Virus record (IMG/VR): IMGVR_UViG_3300034102_001457
Span: 15,858 to 79,857 of that record
DNA: 64,000 nucleotides
Strand: one strand, 5' to 3'
Source: a virus
In this document: piece after piece, positions 2,820 to 16,222 of the stretch
Layout of the letters: the number at the start of each line of letters is the position of its first letter
Position numbering within the stretch: the first letter of the stretch is position 1
Translations under genes and position numbers: made by a program
The notes under the pieces: generated by a model
Database searches by the model: none
What the model saw: the letters and a program-made list of their open reading frames with translations, nothing else
What the model was told of the DNA's origin: nothing

Positions 2820-3902
2820 ATGTCAAGACTCAATAAAAAATTTTTTAGCCGATTAGGTATCAGAAAAGTAGATGTACCCAACCTATCTGGATTAAATAGA
2901 GACCAGGCAATAGCTGTATTAAATGCCGTTGGCTTAGTGCCAGTAGATACTCCAACAAATACAGAAAATATTAATTTAAATCTAGGAATTGTTTCTCAAT
3001 CGCAAGCTGCAGGATCTACGGTTTTAATTGGTTCACAAGTTTCTTTTAATTATTATAATTATGTAGCTCCACCAAACTTTAACCCAGGATTTAACCCAGG
3101 ATTCAACCCAGGATTTGCTAACCCAGGATTTAACCCAGGATTTGGTGTTGTTTGTGATTATGTTGATGCACCAACTTACTGTACTGGTGTAGACTCTCAA
3201 GGCTACGGAGATGCTTATCAGCGGTCATGGACAGCTGGATGTCCAGATGTTTATTTAGGAAGAAGTTTCTGTGGTGTTCCTAACCCAGGATTTAACCCAG
3301 GATTCAACGAACCAGCATTCAACGAACCAGCATTCAACGAACCAGCATTTGACACACCGCTCTTTGGAGGATCTGGAGATCTGACTAATCTTGATCTTAG
3401 CGCACTATTTAGTTTTGGTGGCAAAAGCGTTGGCATTACAACTTTAGTTAGAACTACCGATGGTCTTGTTAAAGCAGGAGATTTACGAGTCGGAGACACT
3501 CTTTTATCTGCAAATATTGAAGGATTCCCTTATGAAGGAGATGAAGGAATAACTGCTCAAGCGATTGCTTGGTCAGATAATAATCCTAGCATAATCCCAG
3601 AAGTTACAACTATAGCTAATATCTATAAAACACAATCTGCATATGCGGTTGTAATTAATGAAGATATATTTTCTCAATACCACTATATTTTAATTAAAAG
3701 AAATGGCGTATCTAAGTTTGAAACTTCAGTAAATATAGTTAAAGAAACTGATTTGGTTTATTCATATGACACTAGCAGCTGGGAGCCTATTTATCTTTAT
3801 GAAATAGTTCAGGCTCCACACGATATTATTTCTATCAACTGTGAGCCATACGATATGTTTTTTACAGAAAGGATGTTAACTCATGATTCAAGCGCAATAT
3901 AA
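2820..3902 (+). CDS. PASTA domain + Pro/Phe repeat + Hint (intein-like) domain protein
   Basis: VPNLSGLNRDQAIAVLNAVGL...VSQSQAAGSTV (PASTA); 7x NPGF and 3x NEPAF; SVGITTLVRTTDGLVKAGDLRVGDTLLS (Hint block A), FSQYH (block B), ISINCEPYDMFFTERMLTHD (blocks F/G). Confidence 0.8.
   Translation: MSRLNKKFFSRLGIRKVDVPNLSGLNRDQAIAVLNAVGLVPVDTPTNTENINLNLGIVSQSQAAGSTVLIGSQVSFNYYNYVAPPNFNPGFNPGFNPGFANPGFNPGFGVVCDYVDAPTYCTGVDSQGYGDAYQRSWTAGCPDVYLGRSFCGVPNPGFNPGFNEPAFNEPAFNEPAFDTPLFGGSGDLTNLDLSALFSFGGKSVGITTLVRTTDGLVKAGDLRVGDTLLSANIEGFPYEGDEGITAQAIAWSDNNPSIIPEVTTIANIYKTQSAYAVVINEDIFSQYHYILIKRNGVSKFETSVNIVKETDLVYSYDTSSWEPIYLYEIVQAPHDIISINCEPYDMFFTERMLTHDSSAI
3081..3143 (+). repeat. 12-bp tandem repeat encoding NPGF x5
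   Basis: AACCCAGGATTY units with one GCT insertion. Confidence 0.95.
3282..3350 (+). repeat. Tandem repeats encoding NPGF x2 and NEPAF x3
   Basis: AACCCAGGATTY x2, then AACGAACCAGCATTY x3. Confidence 0.95.
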
Positions 3903-4428
3903 TATTATAGAGATGAAAATGGTCGGAGAAAACCTTGTGCCCGTATTTTCTGCAATGCCTAATGAACTAAAGGGCTCCTGGATACATGTTACAAAATTAA
4001 ACCATTCATCTATAAAATATGTAAGCGCAATTTATTTTAATGATGTGCATCCCGAAAACACTGTCGTTATTTCAGATTATTTTCCTACAGAATACCCAGA
4101 CTTGTATTGCACCGTTAATAAAAATGGAAGAAATGAAAGAGTTTATGTAAATCCAAAATATAGAAAAATGGGGTTGCTGGGAGTTTCTGGATTAGTTGCT
4201 AGAGCAATATTTAATGATTATTTAAATATAATTATGGATGTGCCTTTAGATAGAAGCGAAAAAACTGAAAAAGCTACTAAATTAGTTAAAGATGTATGGC
4301 AAGAAAAAATAGAAAGCATTCCTCTAGAACAAAAATCATCAATATCAGTATTTGATATTGACCCGCCAAGAGATCCAGCTTATCCAGATGTTTGGCATGG
4401 CCACAGACCAGGAGGAAAAAATGGTTAA
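3883..4428 (+). CDS. GNAT-like acetyltransferase (putative)
   Basis: ERVYVNPKYRKMGLLG matches the GNAT acetyl-CoA-binding motif A (V.P.YR..G); start may be 3913 or 3919. Confidence 0.55.
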   Translation: MIQAQYNIIEMKMVGENLVPVFSAMPNELKGSWIHVTKLNHSSIKYVSAIYFNDVHPENTVVISDYFPTEYPDLYCTVNKNGRNERVYVNPKYRKMGLLGVSGLVARAIFNDYLNIIMDVPLDRSEKTEKATKLVKDVWQEKIESIPLEQKSSISVFDIDPPRDPAYPDVWHGHRPGGKNG

Positions 4429-4951
4429 TAAAATATTTTCAGAACAGGATATAAGTGTTTACAGTTTTTCATATATAAGAGACACAGAGCTTCAAGTTAT
4501 GCTTTCAAGCTTTGAAGAGATTTCATGGATAGAAAGAGTAAATGGTTTTAAAGAAGGAATAATTAAAACAACAAACTTTAAAAATTTAAATTTAGAAAAT
4601 AGGAGGCTATATATTAGCTATATTTCTGAAATAAATTCTTATCTTCATGACAGATCCCTTGCATTTGTTTATCCAATAGAGAATGTGTTTTTAAAAATAA
4701 TTCCAGAAACATCATACATGCAAGAGTTTTTAAACCCAGGACTAATAGATACCATATCAATTATTTATATAGTAAATAGCAATCACACGGGATCTAATAT
4801 TACATTCTTAAACAAAGATATTTCTATACCACTATCAAAAGGTAATTTAATAATTTTCCCATCTTCAGAAGAATATAGGTATAAGATTTCTGAAGTTTCT
4901 TCTGGAGAAATGATTGTTGGAGTTTCTTACGTAGAGGTTAAGAATGATTAA
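4421..4951 (+). CDS. 2OG-Fe(II) oxygenase-fold protein, apparently lacking the metal ligands
   Basis: GGAGG at 4411 before ATG 4421; ISIIYIVNSNHTGSNITF...KGNLIIFPSSEEYRYKISEVSSG parallels the P4H-like C-terminal strands, but no HxD and Y in place of the distal His. Confidence 0.6.
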   Translation: MVNKIFSEQDISVYSFSYIRDTELQVMLSSFEEISWIERVNGFKEGIIKTTNFKNLNLENRRLYISYISEINSYLHDRSLAFVYPIENVFLKIIPETSYMQEFLNPGLIDTISIIYIVNSNHTGSNITFLNKDISIPLSKGNLIIFPSSEEYRYKISEVSSGEMIVGVSYVEVKND

Positions 4952-5534
4952 TACAGAAAGTCAAAATAAAAACGAAAACGTTATATACAGAGAAAAAAGA
5001 AAAACAATCTCAGTTAAAGATAAATTTGATACACTGGGCCTATATGAAAAAATAATAAATGAATTAGATAAATCTGAAAAATTCTATGATTTCCCACATT
5101 CTAATGAAAAAGATATCAAGGTATACGATAAAAATAATTACAATCCATTTTTTATGCATGACGAACAAATGTATTTTCTTTTTCAAAAAGTATCTCTATT
5201 AATAAAAAATGCATGTGAAAAATATCAATTTAGCTACTTAAAAAATAAATATTTTATTTACTCTTCATTAATTGAAGACCAGGACCCGTCTTTATGGTAT
5301 GATGCTGGTGGTACATCAAGACCCTCAATGTTTGGAATAATTTCTCTAGACTCAGAAAAAACAAGATTACTAATTAATGAAGAAGAGTTTGAGATAGAGC
5401 CTGGAGAAATTATTGTTTCGGAAGCGGGCAATAAAATTGTTTATTCTAATAGATTTAAATCAATAGTGTTTTATGTAAGCCCATTATCAGAAATAAAAAA
5501 TCAGTATTCACAAAAGTGGATACCTTTAGTCTAA
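4944..5534 (+). CDS. Degenerate 2OG-Fe(II) oxygenase/cupin-fold protein
   Basis: LWYDAGG...MFGIISLD...IEPGEIIVSEAGN resembles a double-stranded beta-helix; context between two oxygenase-fold genes. Confidence 0.4.
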   Translation: MINTESQNKNENVIYREKRKTISVKDKFDTLGLYEKIINELDKSEKFYDFPHSNEKDIKVYDKNNYNPFFMHDEQMYFLFQKVSLLIKNACEKYQFSYLKNKYFIYSSLIEDQDPSLWYDAGGTSRPSMFGIISLDSEKTRLLINEEEFEIEPGEIIVSEAGNKIVYSNRFKSIVFYVSPLSEIKNQYSQKWIPLV

Positions 5535-5550
5535 AATAAAAGGAGATATT

Positions 5551-6201
5551 ATGATAATTGACACCCCAGCAATTGGAATAAAAATATATAGAAACGCTTT
5601 GCCAGAAGCAATGAACATTCCAGCAAGGCTAGAAAAGGTCTTAAGTTCAGGTAAAAGCTCAATGTTTAAGTGGTCGATTGCCACAGTTGGAGACCACGTA
5701 CAAAAATTAGATTACAGAGATTGTGTCGATTTTAAAATCAAAAGAGATTCTTTGAGGCCAGGGAATGAACTATCTGACGAAATAATATCTGTTCATGATC
5801 AAATAACAGAAAAGCTTCAAGAGTGTTTAAAGGATTACATGAGAGCATACAATACGAACACACTGCACTACATGGAAGCTATAAACTTTGTTCGTTATGG
5901 AGAAGGACAGCATTTTAAAACACACCCAGACAGCGGCCCAAGCTATTCATGCGACGTATCTACTGTTATGTATTTAAATAGCGACTATGAGGGTGGAGAG
6001 CTGTACTTCCCCCATTTTGACTATACCTATGTTCCTCAATATGGCGACATTGTGCTATTCCCATCTAGCTATCTTTTTTCACATGCCGCCTTACCAGTAA
6101 AGTCTGGAATAAAGTATTCTGCAGTAACTATGTTTTCATATAACGATAGAAACCATCAAGATCATGGTAGGTATCAGGGCCAGGTTTCTAAAGTTCTATA
6201 G
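5551..6201 (+). CDS. Prolyl-4-hydroxylase-like 2OG-Fe(II) oxygenase
   Basis: VRYGEGQHFKTHPD (HxD), VSTVMYLNSDYEGGELYF, GDIVLFPSSYLFSH (distal His), VKSGIKYS (2OG-binding Lys). Confidence 0.9.
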   Translation: MIIDTPAIGIKIYRNALPEAMNIPARLEKVLSSGKSSMFKWSIATVGDHVQKLDYRDCVDFKIKRDSLRPGNELSDEIISVHDQITEKLQECLKDYMRAYNTNTLHYMEAINFVRYGEGQHFKTHPDSGPSYSCDVSTVMYLNSDYEGGELYFPHFDYTYVPQYGDIVLFPSSYLFSHAALPVKSGIKYSAVTMFSYNDRNHQDHGRYQGQVSKVL

Positions 6202-6249: not shown

Positions 6250-8016
6250 ATGGCAACAAATTTCCCAGCGTCTTTAGACGTTCTAGTTAACCCACAGCCG
6301 AATGATTCGGTTGAGGAAGTTTCCCATTCCGCCCAACATGCAAATGCCAACGATGCAATTGAGGCATTGGAGTCTAAGGTCGGTGCCAATAACTCTACCG
6401 ACCCAAACTCTTTAGACTATAAGGTCAAAACACTTGAAACAAATATCCTAGATATTGAAGAGGTGGAAGATCTTGTCGGCGGCTTGCTTACCACTGGAAC
6501 CCATAACAATATTACAGTAGCATACGACGATGTTGCTAGAAAAATAAATTTAACTGCTACCTATGACGATGAAGAGGTCATGGATGCAATTGCTACTTCT
6601 TTGACAGCAGGCAACGGAATAACAAAAACTTATGATGATGTTGCAAACACAATAACTTTAGCGGTAGATACCTCAGTTATGGCAGATAAGACCTACGTAA
6701 ATACCGCAATATCAAACCTTGTAGATTCAGCACCAGGACTGCTAGACACTCTAAATGAAATTGCGGCAGCAATAGGAGACGATGCAAATTTTGCAACAAC
6801 AATAACATCCGCTCTAGCAACAAAGTTAAATATTACAACAGCAGCAAGCACATACCTTTCAATAGCTGATGCCCCAGAGACAATATCAGATACAACAGGA
6901 GCAATGTTTGCACATAATGGGCATACAAATGTAGTTGCAACTTATGATGATACAACTAATAGGGTAAACCTTTCAGTAATTGCTCAATTAACACAAGAAC
7001 AGGCTCAAGACTATATCGCTCCTCTTTTTGTACATAATTTAAATCCAAACATTACAGCAACCTATGATGATGAAGCAAACAAGCTAATACTAGAAACAAT
7101 AATCCCTCCGTCTAAAGCTATTATGTCAGCTTCTGCCCCATCATCTCCGTCAGACGGTCAATTCTGGCTGGACACTGATGAATTTAGAAGTGGCACAACT
7201 AGAGCCCTCAAAGTATGGAATGCTTTAACTTCAACTTGGGAATACATAAGCTCAGACCTATCTCTTTCTACTACAAATACCTGGACCTCAAAGAATACTT
7301 ATACAAACGGTATTATTATTGGTTTAGATGCCGCACCAACTACTCCAGTACACGGACAAATTTACTACAATAAAATTCTTAACAAGCTAAATGTTTGGGA
7401 CGGCTTATTGTGGAAGGAAGTATCTGGTTCTGGCGGTGGTGGAGGCGGACTCACATTAATTCCAACAGATGCTTCTGCACCAGCAAGTACATTTTTCGTA
7501 GGTCTTATCGAGCCACCAGCGGGAGCAACAACTCTAGGAGATTTGTGGATAGACGTTGATGATGATGCTGGCGCAACAGAATTTATTTATGCTGGACCAG
7601 AAGCCCCAGCAAATTATAATACAGATACTCTTTGGATTGACACAGATGAACCGATAACAGAATTAATATATAGTGCAAATGAGCCAGCAACCCCTTCTTA
7701 CACAGGAGAGCTTTGGATAGACTTAGATGATACTTCAGGACAGTCTATTGTCTCCTCTTTGACCCCTCCAACGCCTGCAGAAACAGATCTTTGGATAGAC
7801 CTAGCAAACGAAGAGGGATACTTAGAGTATAAAGATTTATTTAAAAATGGAGCAGCGTCAGTTCAAGCTTTTTCAAATTTGCCTACTGCTTCTCTTTATC
7901 CAGGGGCAATGATATACGTAGTTTCACAAAAAACAATATATGTATCTGTTGATAATCAATGGAAAAAGATGTACCCAAACTCAGATTCAGAAGTCCTGTC
8001 TTGGATAGGATTTTGA
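6250..8016 (+). CDS. Fibre/appendage structural protein with acidic LWIDxD repeats
   Basis: Repeated NIT(V/A)xYDD motifs shared with 1344..2816; DSAPGLLDTLNEIAAAIGDDANFATT; GQFWLDTD, DLWIDVDD, TLWIDTDE, ELWIDLDD, DLWIDLAN. Confidence 0.7.
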   Translation: MATNFPASLDVLVNPQPNDSVEEVSHSAQHANANDAIEALESKVGANNSTDPNSLDYKVKTLETNILDIEEVEDLVGGLLTTGTHNNITVAYDDVARKINLTATYDDEEVMDAIATSLTAGNGITKTYDDVANTITLAVDTSVMADKTYVNTAISNLVDSAPGLLDTLNEIAAAIGDDANFATTITSALATKLNITTAASTYLSIADAPETISDTTGAMFAHNGHTNVVATYDDTTNRVNLSVIAQLTQEQAQDYIAPLFVHNLNPNITATYDDEANKLILETIIPPSKAIMSASAPSSPSDGQFWLDTDEFRSGTTRALKVWNALTSTWEYISSDLSLSTTNTWTSKNTYTNGIIIGLDAAPTTPVHGQIYYNKILNKLNVWDGLLWKEVSGSGGGGGGLTLIPTDASAPASTFFVGLIEPPAGATTLGDLWIDVDDDAGATEFIYAGPEAPANYNTDTLWIDTDEPITELIYSANEPATPSYTGELWIDLDDTSGQSIVSSLTPPTPAETDLWIDLANEEGYLEYKDLFKNGAASVQAFSNLPTASLYPGAMIYVVSQKTIYVSVDNQWKKMYPNSDSEVLSWIGF

Positions 8017-8055: not shown

Positions 8056-8676
8056 ATGTCACTAAAGCGTTGGAATGGAACGGCCTGGGTTGTAGTAGCA
8101 GGATCACGACCAGGAGCACAAGGTCCTCAAGGTTTACCTGGACAAGCAGCAACAATATCTGTAGGCGCAGTAAACACATTACCTTCAGGATCAGCACCGA
8201 CTGTTACAAATAGCGGAACATCTTCAGCGGCAATATTAAATTTTAGTCTTCCTACTGGAACGCAGGGCCCAGCGGGTGCTGCAGGTGCAGCGGGACCTCA
8301 AGGAACAGCTGGACAAAGAGGTTCATATAATTTCACTGGAATTGCAGATCCAACAGCACAAAACCCAGCAAACAAATTAGGTTTAGATAATTATTTAAAT
8401 ACAACAACGGGCGATTGGTTCCAATATAATTCAACTACATCGACATGGACATTACAGGGAAATATTAGAGGCCCACAAGGACAGCAGGGATTAACTGGAG
8501 CAACAGGTGCAGTTGGACCTTCTGGTAATGAACTAGCTAATGATATACTTAAGGAAACAACGGTAGCTAGGGTAGATGCAATGCTAAACCTAGGTCTATA
8601 TTATCCAAAGTATACAAGTACTTTGACTCAAACAGAGTTGAACAGTAAATTTGCAGCAACAAGTTATTTATTTTAG
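8056..8676 (+). CDS. Collagen-like fibre protein
   Basis: Three G-X-Y segments; LKRWNGTAW N-terminus; YLNTTTGDWFQY...WTLQGNIRGPQG. Confidence 0.75.
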   Translation: MSLKRWNGTAWVVVAGSRPGAQGPQGLPGQAATISVGAVNTLPSGSAPTVTNSGTSSAAILNFSLPTGTQGPAGAAGAAGPQGTAGQRGSYNFTGIADPTAQNPANKLGLDNYLNTTTGDWFQYNSTTSTWTLQGNIRGPQGQQGLTGATGAVGPSGNELANDILKETTVARVDAMLNLGLYYPKYTSTLTQTELNSKFAATSYLF

Positions 8677-15845: not shown

Positions 15846-16222
15846 TGTACTACATTAAATTTGACGCAAATAATATTCAAGAGCAGATGATTCTTTCCGA
15901 AGAAAATCCAGGTGCTGGATGGCACGGAGTCGGAGAAGATATTGATGGCAAGATGTTTAAATTAGTATCTGGAGCACCCATTGCTATGACAGACGAAGAG
16001 AAAGATGAATATTATCTTTCACTAAAAACTACATATTCATATGCTGCTCTAAGGGCAGATAGAAATGAAATGCTAATGAGATCAGACTGGACTCAATTAC
16101 CAAATTCTGGTTTATCAGAAGCAAAAAGAGCAGAATGGGAAACCTATAGACAAGCGCTTAGGGACCTCCCAGAAACAATGACGGAAGACCTTGAATATAC
16201 TCTTCCAGAGGTTCCAGCATAA
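15845..16222 (+). CDS. Tail fibre assembly chaperone
   Basis: LRADRNEMLMRSDWTQLP...WETYRQALRDLP is the typical Tfa/APC-like motif. Confidence 0.85.
   Translation: MYYIKFDANNIQEQMILSEENPGAGWHGVGEDIDGKMFKLVSGAPIAMTDEEKDEYYLSLKTTYSYAALRADRNEMLMRSDWTQLPNSGLSEAKRAEWETYRQALRDLPETMTEDLEYTLPEVPA

Follow-up and report, generated by a model that had tools for sequence, protein, structure and literature searches.

A modular fibre-block protein with an atypical Hint domain and near-obligate partner genes in an uncultured virus

Gene content and modular organisation of the cassette

We analysed a stretch of 64,000 nucleotides (nt) of viral DNA, hereafter the window, which covers positions 15,858 to 79,857 of the IMG/VR record IMGVR_UViG_3300034102_001457, and focused on five open reading frames (ORF1 to ORF5; 2820-6201) that all lie on the + strand within a block of fibre genes. 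ORF1 encodes a modular protein whose C-terminal Hint domain belongs to an atypical subtype, and its gene travels almost obligately with the families of ORF2 and ORF4. The features of this cassette are listed below with amino acid (aa) positions and, for models built with AlphaFold2 (AF2), with predicted local distance difference test (pLDDT) values.

2820..3902, + strand: ORF1, 360 aa, with PASTA domain, linker, four-cysteine (4-Cys) module, linker and Hint domain (ORF list, homologues, AF2 model)
2868..3047, + strand: PASTA domain, aa 17-76 (PF03793, E 6.3e-8, 32.9 bits vs a cut-off of 23.2; pLDDT 92-95)
3081..3143, + strand: repeat array 1, NPGF x5, aa 88-108, disordered linker (Tandem Repeats Finder, TRF, period 12, 5.2 copies; pLDDT <50)
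3153..3275, + strand: 4-Cys module, aa 112-152, a small folded insert with C112, C121, C141 and C151 (pLDDT 87-94)
3282..3350, + strand: repeat array 2, NPGF x2 and NEPAF x3, aa 155-177, disordered linker continuing to K202 (TRF periods 12 and 15, 93-97% matches)
3426..3887, + strand: Hint domain, aa 203-356, with Ser1, a block B-like S285-x-x-H288 and terminal H355-D356 (Foldseek, VIA)
3888..3899, + strand: tail of four residues after the Hint domain, SSAI, with the +1 Ser (domain alignment)
3883..4428, + strand: ORF2, 181 aa, divergent GNAT-like fold (AF2 pLDDT 87.7, VIA)
4421..4951, + strand: ORF3, 176 aa, lineage-specific paralogue of ORF5 that lacks the metal ligands (hhalign against the ORF5 family 97.7%, E 1.8e-12)
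4944..5534, + strand: ORF4, 196 aa, probable ligand-less double-stranded beta-helix protein (hhalign, PF13759 matches of relatives)
5551..6201, + strand: ORF5, 216 aa, accessory prolyl 4-hydroxylase (P4H)-like 2-oxoglutarate (2OG)-Fe(II) oxygenase with intact H125/D127/H178 (PF13640, E 7.7e-14)

The five genes are translationally coupled. The ATG of ORF2 is embedded in the CATGAT of ORF1, the His-Asp codons that end the Hint domain, so that the two genes overlap by 20 nt; the starts of ORF3 and ORF4 each overlap the stop codon of the preceding gene, and ORF5 starts after a 16-nt gap with an AAGGAG site. The CAT-GAT site is listed at window 3880-3885, and the closer relatives L004, L010, L014, L017 and L020 preserve the 20-nt overlap. 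ORF3 and ORF4 have a GC content of 27%, which was considered as a sign of foreign origin and rejected, because their GC at third codon positions equals that of the flanking genes.

An original prediction, made from the letters of the window, had described a PASTA domain, seven NPGF and three NEPAF repeats, a 4-Cys segment and a C-terminal Hint domain in ORF1, all of which we recovered with Pfam, TRF, AF2, Foldseek and VIA, as well as five tightly coupled genes within the fibre block, which agrees with the overlaps and the gap with its AAGGAG site. It had also placed a GNAT gene and three oxygenase-fold genes in the cassette. This part held for ORF5, which is intact, and for ORF3, which is a ligand-less paralogue of ORF5, while ORF2 proved GNAT-like at middling Z scores and the oxygenase fold of ORF4 no more than probable.

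The AF2 model of ORF1, built with 47 homologues, resolves PASTA, the 4-Cys module and aa 200-360 as three confidently predicted domains, joined by two disordered linkers, with pLDDT below 50 over aa 156-199 in the region of the second array. The repeats are true DNA tandem arrays with periods of 12 and 15 bp and 85-97% matches, and add up to seven NPGF (aa 88-108 and 155-162) and three NEPAF units (aa 163-177). Unit and copy number of the first array differ even among relatives that are 80-90% identical. The 4-Cys module, with spacing C-x8-C-x19-C-x9-C, is a mobile unit: it recurs nearly identically between Pro/Thr or Val/Pro linkers in P0072, P0073, P0083 and P0084, which are PASTA proteins without Hint domain but with further Cys-rich modules, and in close relatives of ORF1 it is deleted or swapped for an Ig-like 'SSVSSSSWNGS' module.

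Variation extends to everything upstream of the Hint domain. ORF1 has 84 metagenomic homologues, and relatives range over architectures with one or two PASTA domains, fn3, Ig-like and Cys-module arrangements and fibre-like proteins of up to 951 aa; what stays conserved across these variable proteins is the Hint domain. Immediately before it lies a tract whose sequence depends on the lineage, with NPGF/SPGF/TPDF, PPFFPPYF, GAFGAF, TPFGF, NY-rich, poly-Pro and APPADPP versions. Phe or Tyr abounds in many of them, a feature that may be significant in itself, and no motif recognisable by a single enzyme is common to them.

The Hint domain and the genes that travel with it

No model of Pfam, PHROG or NCBIfam, Hint models included, matched the C-terminal domain of ORF1. 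Its predicted structure (aa 200-360; pLDDT mostly >87, with one 10-residue block at 76) is nevertheless unmistakably that of a Hint fold: Foldseek matched it at E 2e-7 to Tetrahymena BIL2, to many inteins and to the Hedgehog Hint domain, and VIA superposed it on BIL2 with Z 18.0 and a root-mean-square deviation of 1.8 Å over 136 residues, with 106 chains at Z ≥8. In the VIA alignments, many inteins place their first residue on S203 and their last on D356, and we therefore take S203 as position 1, D356 as the counterpart of the terminal Asn and S357 as the +1 residue.

Conservation was assessed over 121 distinct metagenomic domains, and over 120 for the positions of the C-terminal end. S203 is present in all 121, S or T at 285 in 119 and H288 in 120, and 114 carry Lys at -1 (K202). 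At the other end, H355 is kept in 114 and S357 in 113 of 120; D356 occurs in 120/120, such that the domain ends in His-Asp and not in the His-Asn of class 1 inteins. The tail after D356 is four residues long in 85 domains and five in 13 (98/120 together). Ser1 after a near-invariant Lys, an S-x-x-H block B, a His-Asp end, a +1 Ser and a four-residue tail thus define an atypical Hint subtype. A group with FGA repeats (L073-L082) departs from this pattern, as its Hint domains follow long (GAF)n tracts and end in ...LVYD followed by G, with Tyr for the penultimate His and Gly at +1. Splicing onto a +1 nucleophile is impossible in this group; ORF2 and ORF4 are kept there and an oxygenase is almost never present.

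We surveyed the 8-kb flanks of the Hint gene in 52 related viral loci, all distinct and extending at least 5 kb downstream of it. The ORF4 family was found in all 52 loci and the ORF2 family in 49, compared with 15 loci for the ORF3 family, 29 for an intact oxygenase and 24 for a collagen-like gene. A reciprocal search seeded with ORF2 recovered the Hint gene directly upstream in 35/35 loci with upstream DNA, and ORF4 downstream in all of them. The linkage of the Hint gene with ORF2 and ORF4 is thus near-obligate in both directions. By contrast, an intact oxygenase shows no association with X-Pro-Gly repeats (both present in 10 loci, all of the window's own lineage; oxygenase only in 19; repeats only in 3) or with collagen-like genes (both in 13 loci, oxygenase only in 16, collagen only in 11, neither in 12). 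Three to six tandem intact 2OG-oxygenase paralogues follow the Hint gene, ORF2 and ORF4 in L029, L032, L035 and L047, which represent the lineages with the highest Phe/Pro content in their linkers (PFFPPFF; 30-46% aromatic).

A natural control came from a sister lineage uncovered by a scan with P0073, the PASTA/Cys-module relative without Hint domain. Its members have a PASTA-repeat gene in the corresponding position, following a fibB-like gene, and the encoded protein either lacks a Hint domain (L120-L123) or carries a canonical one that starts with Cys1 and ends in VHN plus 1-4 residues (L126-L129, L131 and L132). Some of these canonical-Hint proteins also have aromatic YSFTP/TAYTFTP repeats. 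No relative of ORF2 or ORF4 was detected in any of these loci even at E <10; since the sister loci lack both, what ORF2 and ORF4 accompany is the Ser1/His-Asp Hint domain, as opposed to PASTA, aromatic repeats or the fibre context. Related phages thus carry one or the other of two Hint subtypes at this position. L133 (6986-10272) has a third variant, in which the Hint domain begins with S after FKFSA and ends in ...MLVKD followed by YYQNKKPIV, with Lys for the penultimate His; downstream lie a 265-aa ORF with a PKTGGTS motif and no Pfam match and a P4H-like gene, and neither ORF2 nor ORF4 is present.

ORF2 can be assigned a divergent GNAT-like fold with moderate confidence, judging from its model. 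The 50 best VIA matches were all GNAT-fold proteins, at middling Z scores of 5.3-6.8 over ~100-112 of its 181 residues, and features of the ESM language model pointed to viral clusters of PF00583 (Acetyltransf_1). R94-x-x-G97, (nearly) invariant in the family, lies in the beta4-alpha3 loop between the strand at 83-89 and the helix at 98-114, which is the position of GNAT motif A (R/Q-x-x-G-x-G/A); the last G/A position is Leu in the window protein. No match was obtained in Pfam, PHROG or NCBIfam, a PDB profile search returned only RibT at E 0.66, and Foldseek against the PDB gave no match at E ≤0.001, the top ones being spurious matches to HIV reverse transcriptase. The ubiquitin-like 'RIGG' end of ORF2 was considered and rejected, as it is not conserved across the family. 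A complex prediction for the Hint region (aa 186-360) with ORF2 scored 0.00, a value that counts neither for nor against binding.

ORF5 scored 52.9 bits against PF13640 (cut-off 27), and its family keeps H125 and H178 in at least 90% of members and D127 in all. The nearest solved relatives of the family profile include P3H1 (1.6e-17), the P4H enzymes of Bacillus anthracis (3e-14) and PBCV-1 (1e-9), and also PHD2. In ORF3 the triad is lost, with the HxD motif absent and the distal His replaced by Tyr. ORF4 had no match in Pfam, PHROG or NCBIfam, its PDB profile search returned noise, and a narrow alignment gave no significant hhalign match to ORF5 (19%) or ORF3 (1%). After its family was widened to 114 clusters in a search of 1.84 billion representatives, the profile aligned motif to motif with the ORF5 family (hhalign 63%, E 7e-5), and 3/66 relatives touched PF13759 (best 1.5e-4). 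These profile comparisons make an oxygenase-type (double-stranded beta-helix) fold of ORF4 probable. The widened family has the consensus WHDHxG...H...RITIAF, where ORF4 of the window has WYDAGG and KSIVF instead.

The source record is a 79.9-kb IMG/VR virus, 63% complete by CheckV, whose large structural genes distantly resemble those of T4-like cyanomyoviruses, with 38% identity to a virion structural protein of S-RIM44, Syn1 and S-PM2. Collagen-repeat fibre genes lie on both sides of the cassette (PF01391, E 3e-17), and its neighbours are the following.

160-1116: fibre gene with Mtd_N and collagen repeats
1344-2816: Mtd_N fibre gene
6250-8016: fibre gene
8056-8676: collagen-like gene

The first of these fibre proteins has a weak match to plastocyanin/azurin-type Copper-bind at its C-terminal end (PF00127, E 0.2, aa 285-313). 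There was no WhiB gene (PF02467) in the 79.9-kb record and no tRNA gene in the window. Cassette and flanking fibre genes show different histories in two relatives: ORF2 to ORF5 of L010 are 89-95% identical to those of the window and its upstream fibre only 47%, and L004 shares 94% identity in the upstream fibres and only 59% in ORF2, which places recombination breakpoints inside or beside ORF1.

Relatives of the Hint protein were found on 189 IMG/VR contigs. Megablast and tblastn searches of 50,697 cultured-phage records found no match to the region or to ORF1, and the 185,579 species genomes of GTDB yielded a single 9.6-kb contig (L083, JBBRXZ010000043.1) of a Saccharimonadales metagenome-assembled genome (MAG). 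The family is thus essentially viral. The L083 contig is probably phage DNA binned with the Saccharimonadales MAG and could alternatively be a clue to the host. No paper that we found describes a Hint/GNAT gene pair, or a Hint or BIL domain in a phage fibre protein, and nothing relevant emerged on PASTA domains in phage tails or on P4H enzymes with phage collagen fibres.

Interpretation and rival explanations

We consider it fairly probable that ORF1 is a modular fibre-block adhesin, built from a PASTA domain that binds peptidoglycan, a small disulfide module and flexible linkers rich in Pro and aromatic residues and ending in an atypical Hint autoprocessing domain, with ORF2 and ORF4 as its dedicated partners and ORF5 and ORF3 as lineage-specific accessories. 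In such a module, an N-to-O acyl shift at K202-S203 would generate an ester, which could then be resolved by cleavage (hydrolysis), by splicing onto the +1 Ser that begins the short tail, or by transfer to an outside nucleophile; each of these outcomes would remove the Hint domain from the mature adhesin. The most probable role of ORF2 and ORF4 would be to assist, time, control or redirect the transfer of the acyl group or the cleavage, or else to modify the junction. Enzymes of the GNAT type transfer acyl groups from thioesters or esters to amines, and a Lys such as the invariant one at -1 is a typical target for them. That the Ser1/Asp subtype keeps helpers, unlike the canonical one, could follow from a lower reactivity than that of Cys1/Asn. 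As to ORF5 and ORF3, their substrate could be the linkers, the collagen-like fibres or something else.

Several points weigh against this reading. ORF2 is absent from 3/52 loci (the L067-L072 group), and in the L067 group the first downstream ORF shows no relation to the ORF2 family and the second none to the ORF4 family. The fold match of ORF2 is middling (Z <8) and no sequence model recognises the protein, while ORF4 may be non-enzymatic, since every metal and 2OG ligand is absent. Within the Hint domain, Tyr or Phe replaces His355 in six domains and Gly occupies the +1 position in seven, so no single chemistry fits all members, and a terminal Asp is a poor stand-in for Asn in canonical splicing. 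The data show the domain identities, the conserved residues, the synteny and the natural control; that ORF1 is processed at all, and what ORF2 and ORF4 do, we infer, and its association with the virion we take from gene position alone.

A different role for the repeats was proposed in the original prediction, which read the five genes along the logic of ribosomally synthesized and post-translationally modified peptides (RiPPs): NPGF and NEPAF would be the specific substrate, hydroxylated on Pro/Asn by ORF5 with help from ORF3 and ORF4, acylated by ORF2 and released by the Hint domain as a decorated product. Collagen-type P4H enzymes use an X-Pro-Gly motif, which N-P-G fits, and ORF5 is P4H-like; the window's own lineage always combines NPGF-type repeats with ORF5, and the multi-oxygenase loci L029, L035 and L047 have the most aromatic/Pro-rich linkers. 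Across the wider family, however, ORF2 and ORF4 persist as the repeats give way to unrelated units or plain poly-Pro or Pro/Thr linkers, 19 of the 29 loci with an intact oxygenase lack X-Pro-Gly, and 23/52 have no intact oxygenase within the flanks searched. The repeats are predicted to form disordered linkers that connect folded domains, and what the gene yields is a multi-domain protein and not a leader/core peptide; we saw neither a core co-varying with tailoring enzymes nor a short peptide product. Hydroxylated and acylated repeats as the purpose of the cassette are hence improbable, and an autoprocessing adhesin module with dedicated partners describes the genes better than a RiPP-like cassette does. 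Homologues of the repeat-Hint gene do occur without ORF3 and ORF5, which had been named as a finding that would speak against the proposal, but this does not hold for ORF2 and ORF4, and for these two a conserved functional neighbourhood is supported (ORF2 49/52, ORF4 52/52, reverse 35/35). It is somewhat less doubtful, though still unlikely, that ORF5 (with ORF3) stands outside the Hint system altogether and hydroxylates prolines of the adjacent collagen-like fibres (160-1116 and 8056-8676), or is a free-standing 2OG oxygenase gene of a kind common in cyanomyovirus-like phages. The cassette is flanked by collagen-repeat fibre genes, the nearest solved relatives of ORF5 are collagen prolyl 3- and 4-hydroxylases, and the Hint/ORF2/ORF4 core dispenses with it; yet oxygenase and collagen-like genes are not associated across the 52 loci, the fibre prolines are mostly in G-P-X and not X-P-G, and oxygenase genes, when present, lie inside the cassette and not beside the collagen genes.

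Other explanations concern the Hint domain itself. The fold could be catalytically silent and serve, much as the capsid-binding end of decoration proteins does, as a conserved domain for anchoring or assembly, with ORF2 and ORF4 as non-enzymatic assembly chaperones like tail-fibre assembly genes. A conserved C-terminal domain on variable fibre-block proteins with small genes directly after it does recall fibre/chaperone pairs, ORF4 lacks catalytic ligands, and the terminal Asp is unfavourable for cyclisation. We nonetheless regard silence as distinctly improbable, because invariance falls precisely on the catalytic positions of a Hint domain (Ser1, block B His, penultimate His, terminal residue and +1 Ser), all in the right structural register, and because the sister lineage with a canonical Cys1/His-Asn Hint domain at the same place argues that processing is the selected function. 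An ordinary selfish mini-intein near the end of ORF1, with unrelated neighbour genes, would account for the full set of intein-like positions, including the +1 Ser, and for the lack of an endonuclease, as in mini-inteins; it is scarcely credible in view of an 'extein' that is not conserved while the Hint domain is, a C-extein of only four residues, the same domain on unrelated N-terminal architectures, and the near-obligate linkage to ORF2 and ORF4 both ways.

A more far-reaching version of the autoprocessing adhesin module is a protein-ligation device, which we put forward as a long shot. The Ser1/His-Asp Hint domain and its GNAT-fold partner would pass the ester formed at the invariant Lys202, aided by ORF2 and ORF4, to an amine on a virion protein or on host peptidoglycan bound by PASTA, so that exchangeable adhesin modules become covalently fixed; the oxygenases of some lineages would turn aromatic/Pro repeats into an adhesive by hydroxylation, as in mussel foot proteins. 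What the loci display is a phage-specific Hint subtype that caps exchangeable adhesin-like modules in a fibre block and is almost obligately linked to GNAT-like and dead-oxygenase-like genes. Should the Hint ester be controlled or redirected by these partners, phages would have a new post-translational route for maturing or attaching their receptor-binding parts, and the system could represent a new enzyme-assisted protein-ligation chemistry of biotechnological interest. On a more modest reading, the modular wall-binding proteins of uncultured freshwater-type phages would be systematically self-processing.

Comparison with known systems

Among characterised oxygenases, the P4H enzymes of PBCV-1 (5c5t) and B. 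anthracis (3itq) belong to the same family as ORF5 (PF13640) and share its HxD...H triad, and the PBCV-1 enzyme acts on Pro-rich repeats of viral proteins; ORF5 differs in being an optional accessory of its cassette. A functional analogy links the ORF1 Hint domain to Peptidase_S74, the intramolecular chaperone/autocleavage domain at the C-terminus of phage tailspikes and fibres. This conserved module removes itself from diverse fibre proteins; it is unrelated in fold and chemistry (helical, with a Ser-Lys dyad) and needs no partner genes.

Hedgehog (1at0) likewise ends in a Hint domain, which VIA matched to that of ORF1 at Z 17.1 and which self-cleaves via an ester resolved by a second nucleophile. 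That a separate acyltransferase also modifies Hedgehog offers a conceptual parallel to ORF2, although the Hedgehog acyltransferase is an MBOAT protein and ORF2 is GNAT-like. ORF1 has no sterol-recognition region and a tail of only four residues, and Hedgehog uses Cys; the homology is confined to the Hint fold.

The closest known systems to the ORF1 Hint domain are BIL domains and mini-inteins. Class 1 mini-inteins (Ssp DnaB 1mi8, Mtu RecA 2in0 and phage gp41-1 6qaz) share its fold and register, the block B T/S-x-x-H, the penultimate His and the +1 Ser. They differ in ending in Asn where ORF1 has Asp; moreover, the C-extein of ORF1 is 4-5 residues long in the family, its flanks are not a conserved host protein, and it is the Hint domain itself that is the conserved, selected part. 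With unconserved flanks, a C-extein of four residues and a terminal Asp, the ORF1 Hint domain is not a true intein.

BIL domains occur in variable regions of non-conserved, surface-type proteins and have no homing endonuclease (PMC7765530, PMC4031507), and type A domains have a C-terminal His-Asn and no +1 nucleophile (PMC4031507). The ORF1 Hint domain has the same fold as those of Clostridium thermocellum (2lwy) and Tetrahymena (BUBL BIL2, 6y75), at Z 16.9-18.0, and is also found in variable surface-type proteins without homing endonuclease. It has Ser1 where BIL domains have Cys1, a His-Asp end as opposed to the His-Asn of type A or the non-intein end of type B, and a +1 Ser that is typically missing from BIL domains; with Ser1 and a His-Asp end followed by +1 Ser, it is neither a textbook type A nor a textbook type B BIL domain. 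It is also phage-encoded, with two dedicated partner genes of which none are described for BIL domains. To our knowledge, no Hint domain of inteins, Hedgehog or BIL proteins needs dedicated partner genes. BIL domains of BUBL proteins conjugate their upstream domain to other proteins, and a conjugation of this type is a possible model for the Hint domain of ORF1.

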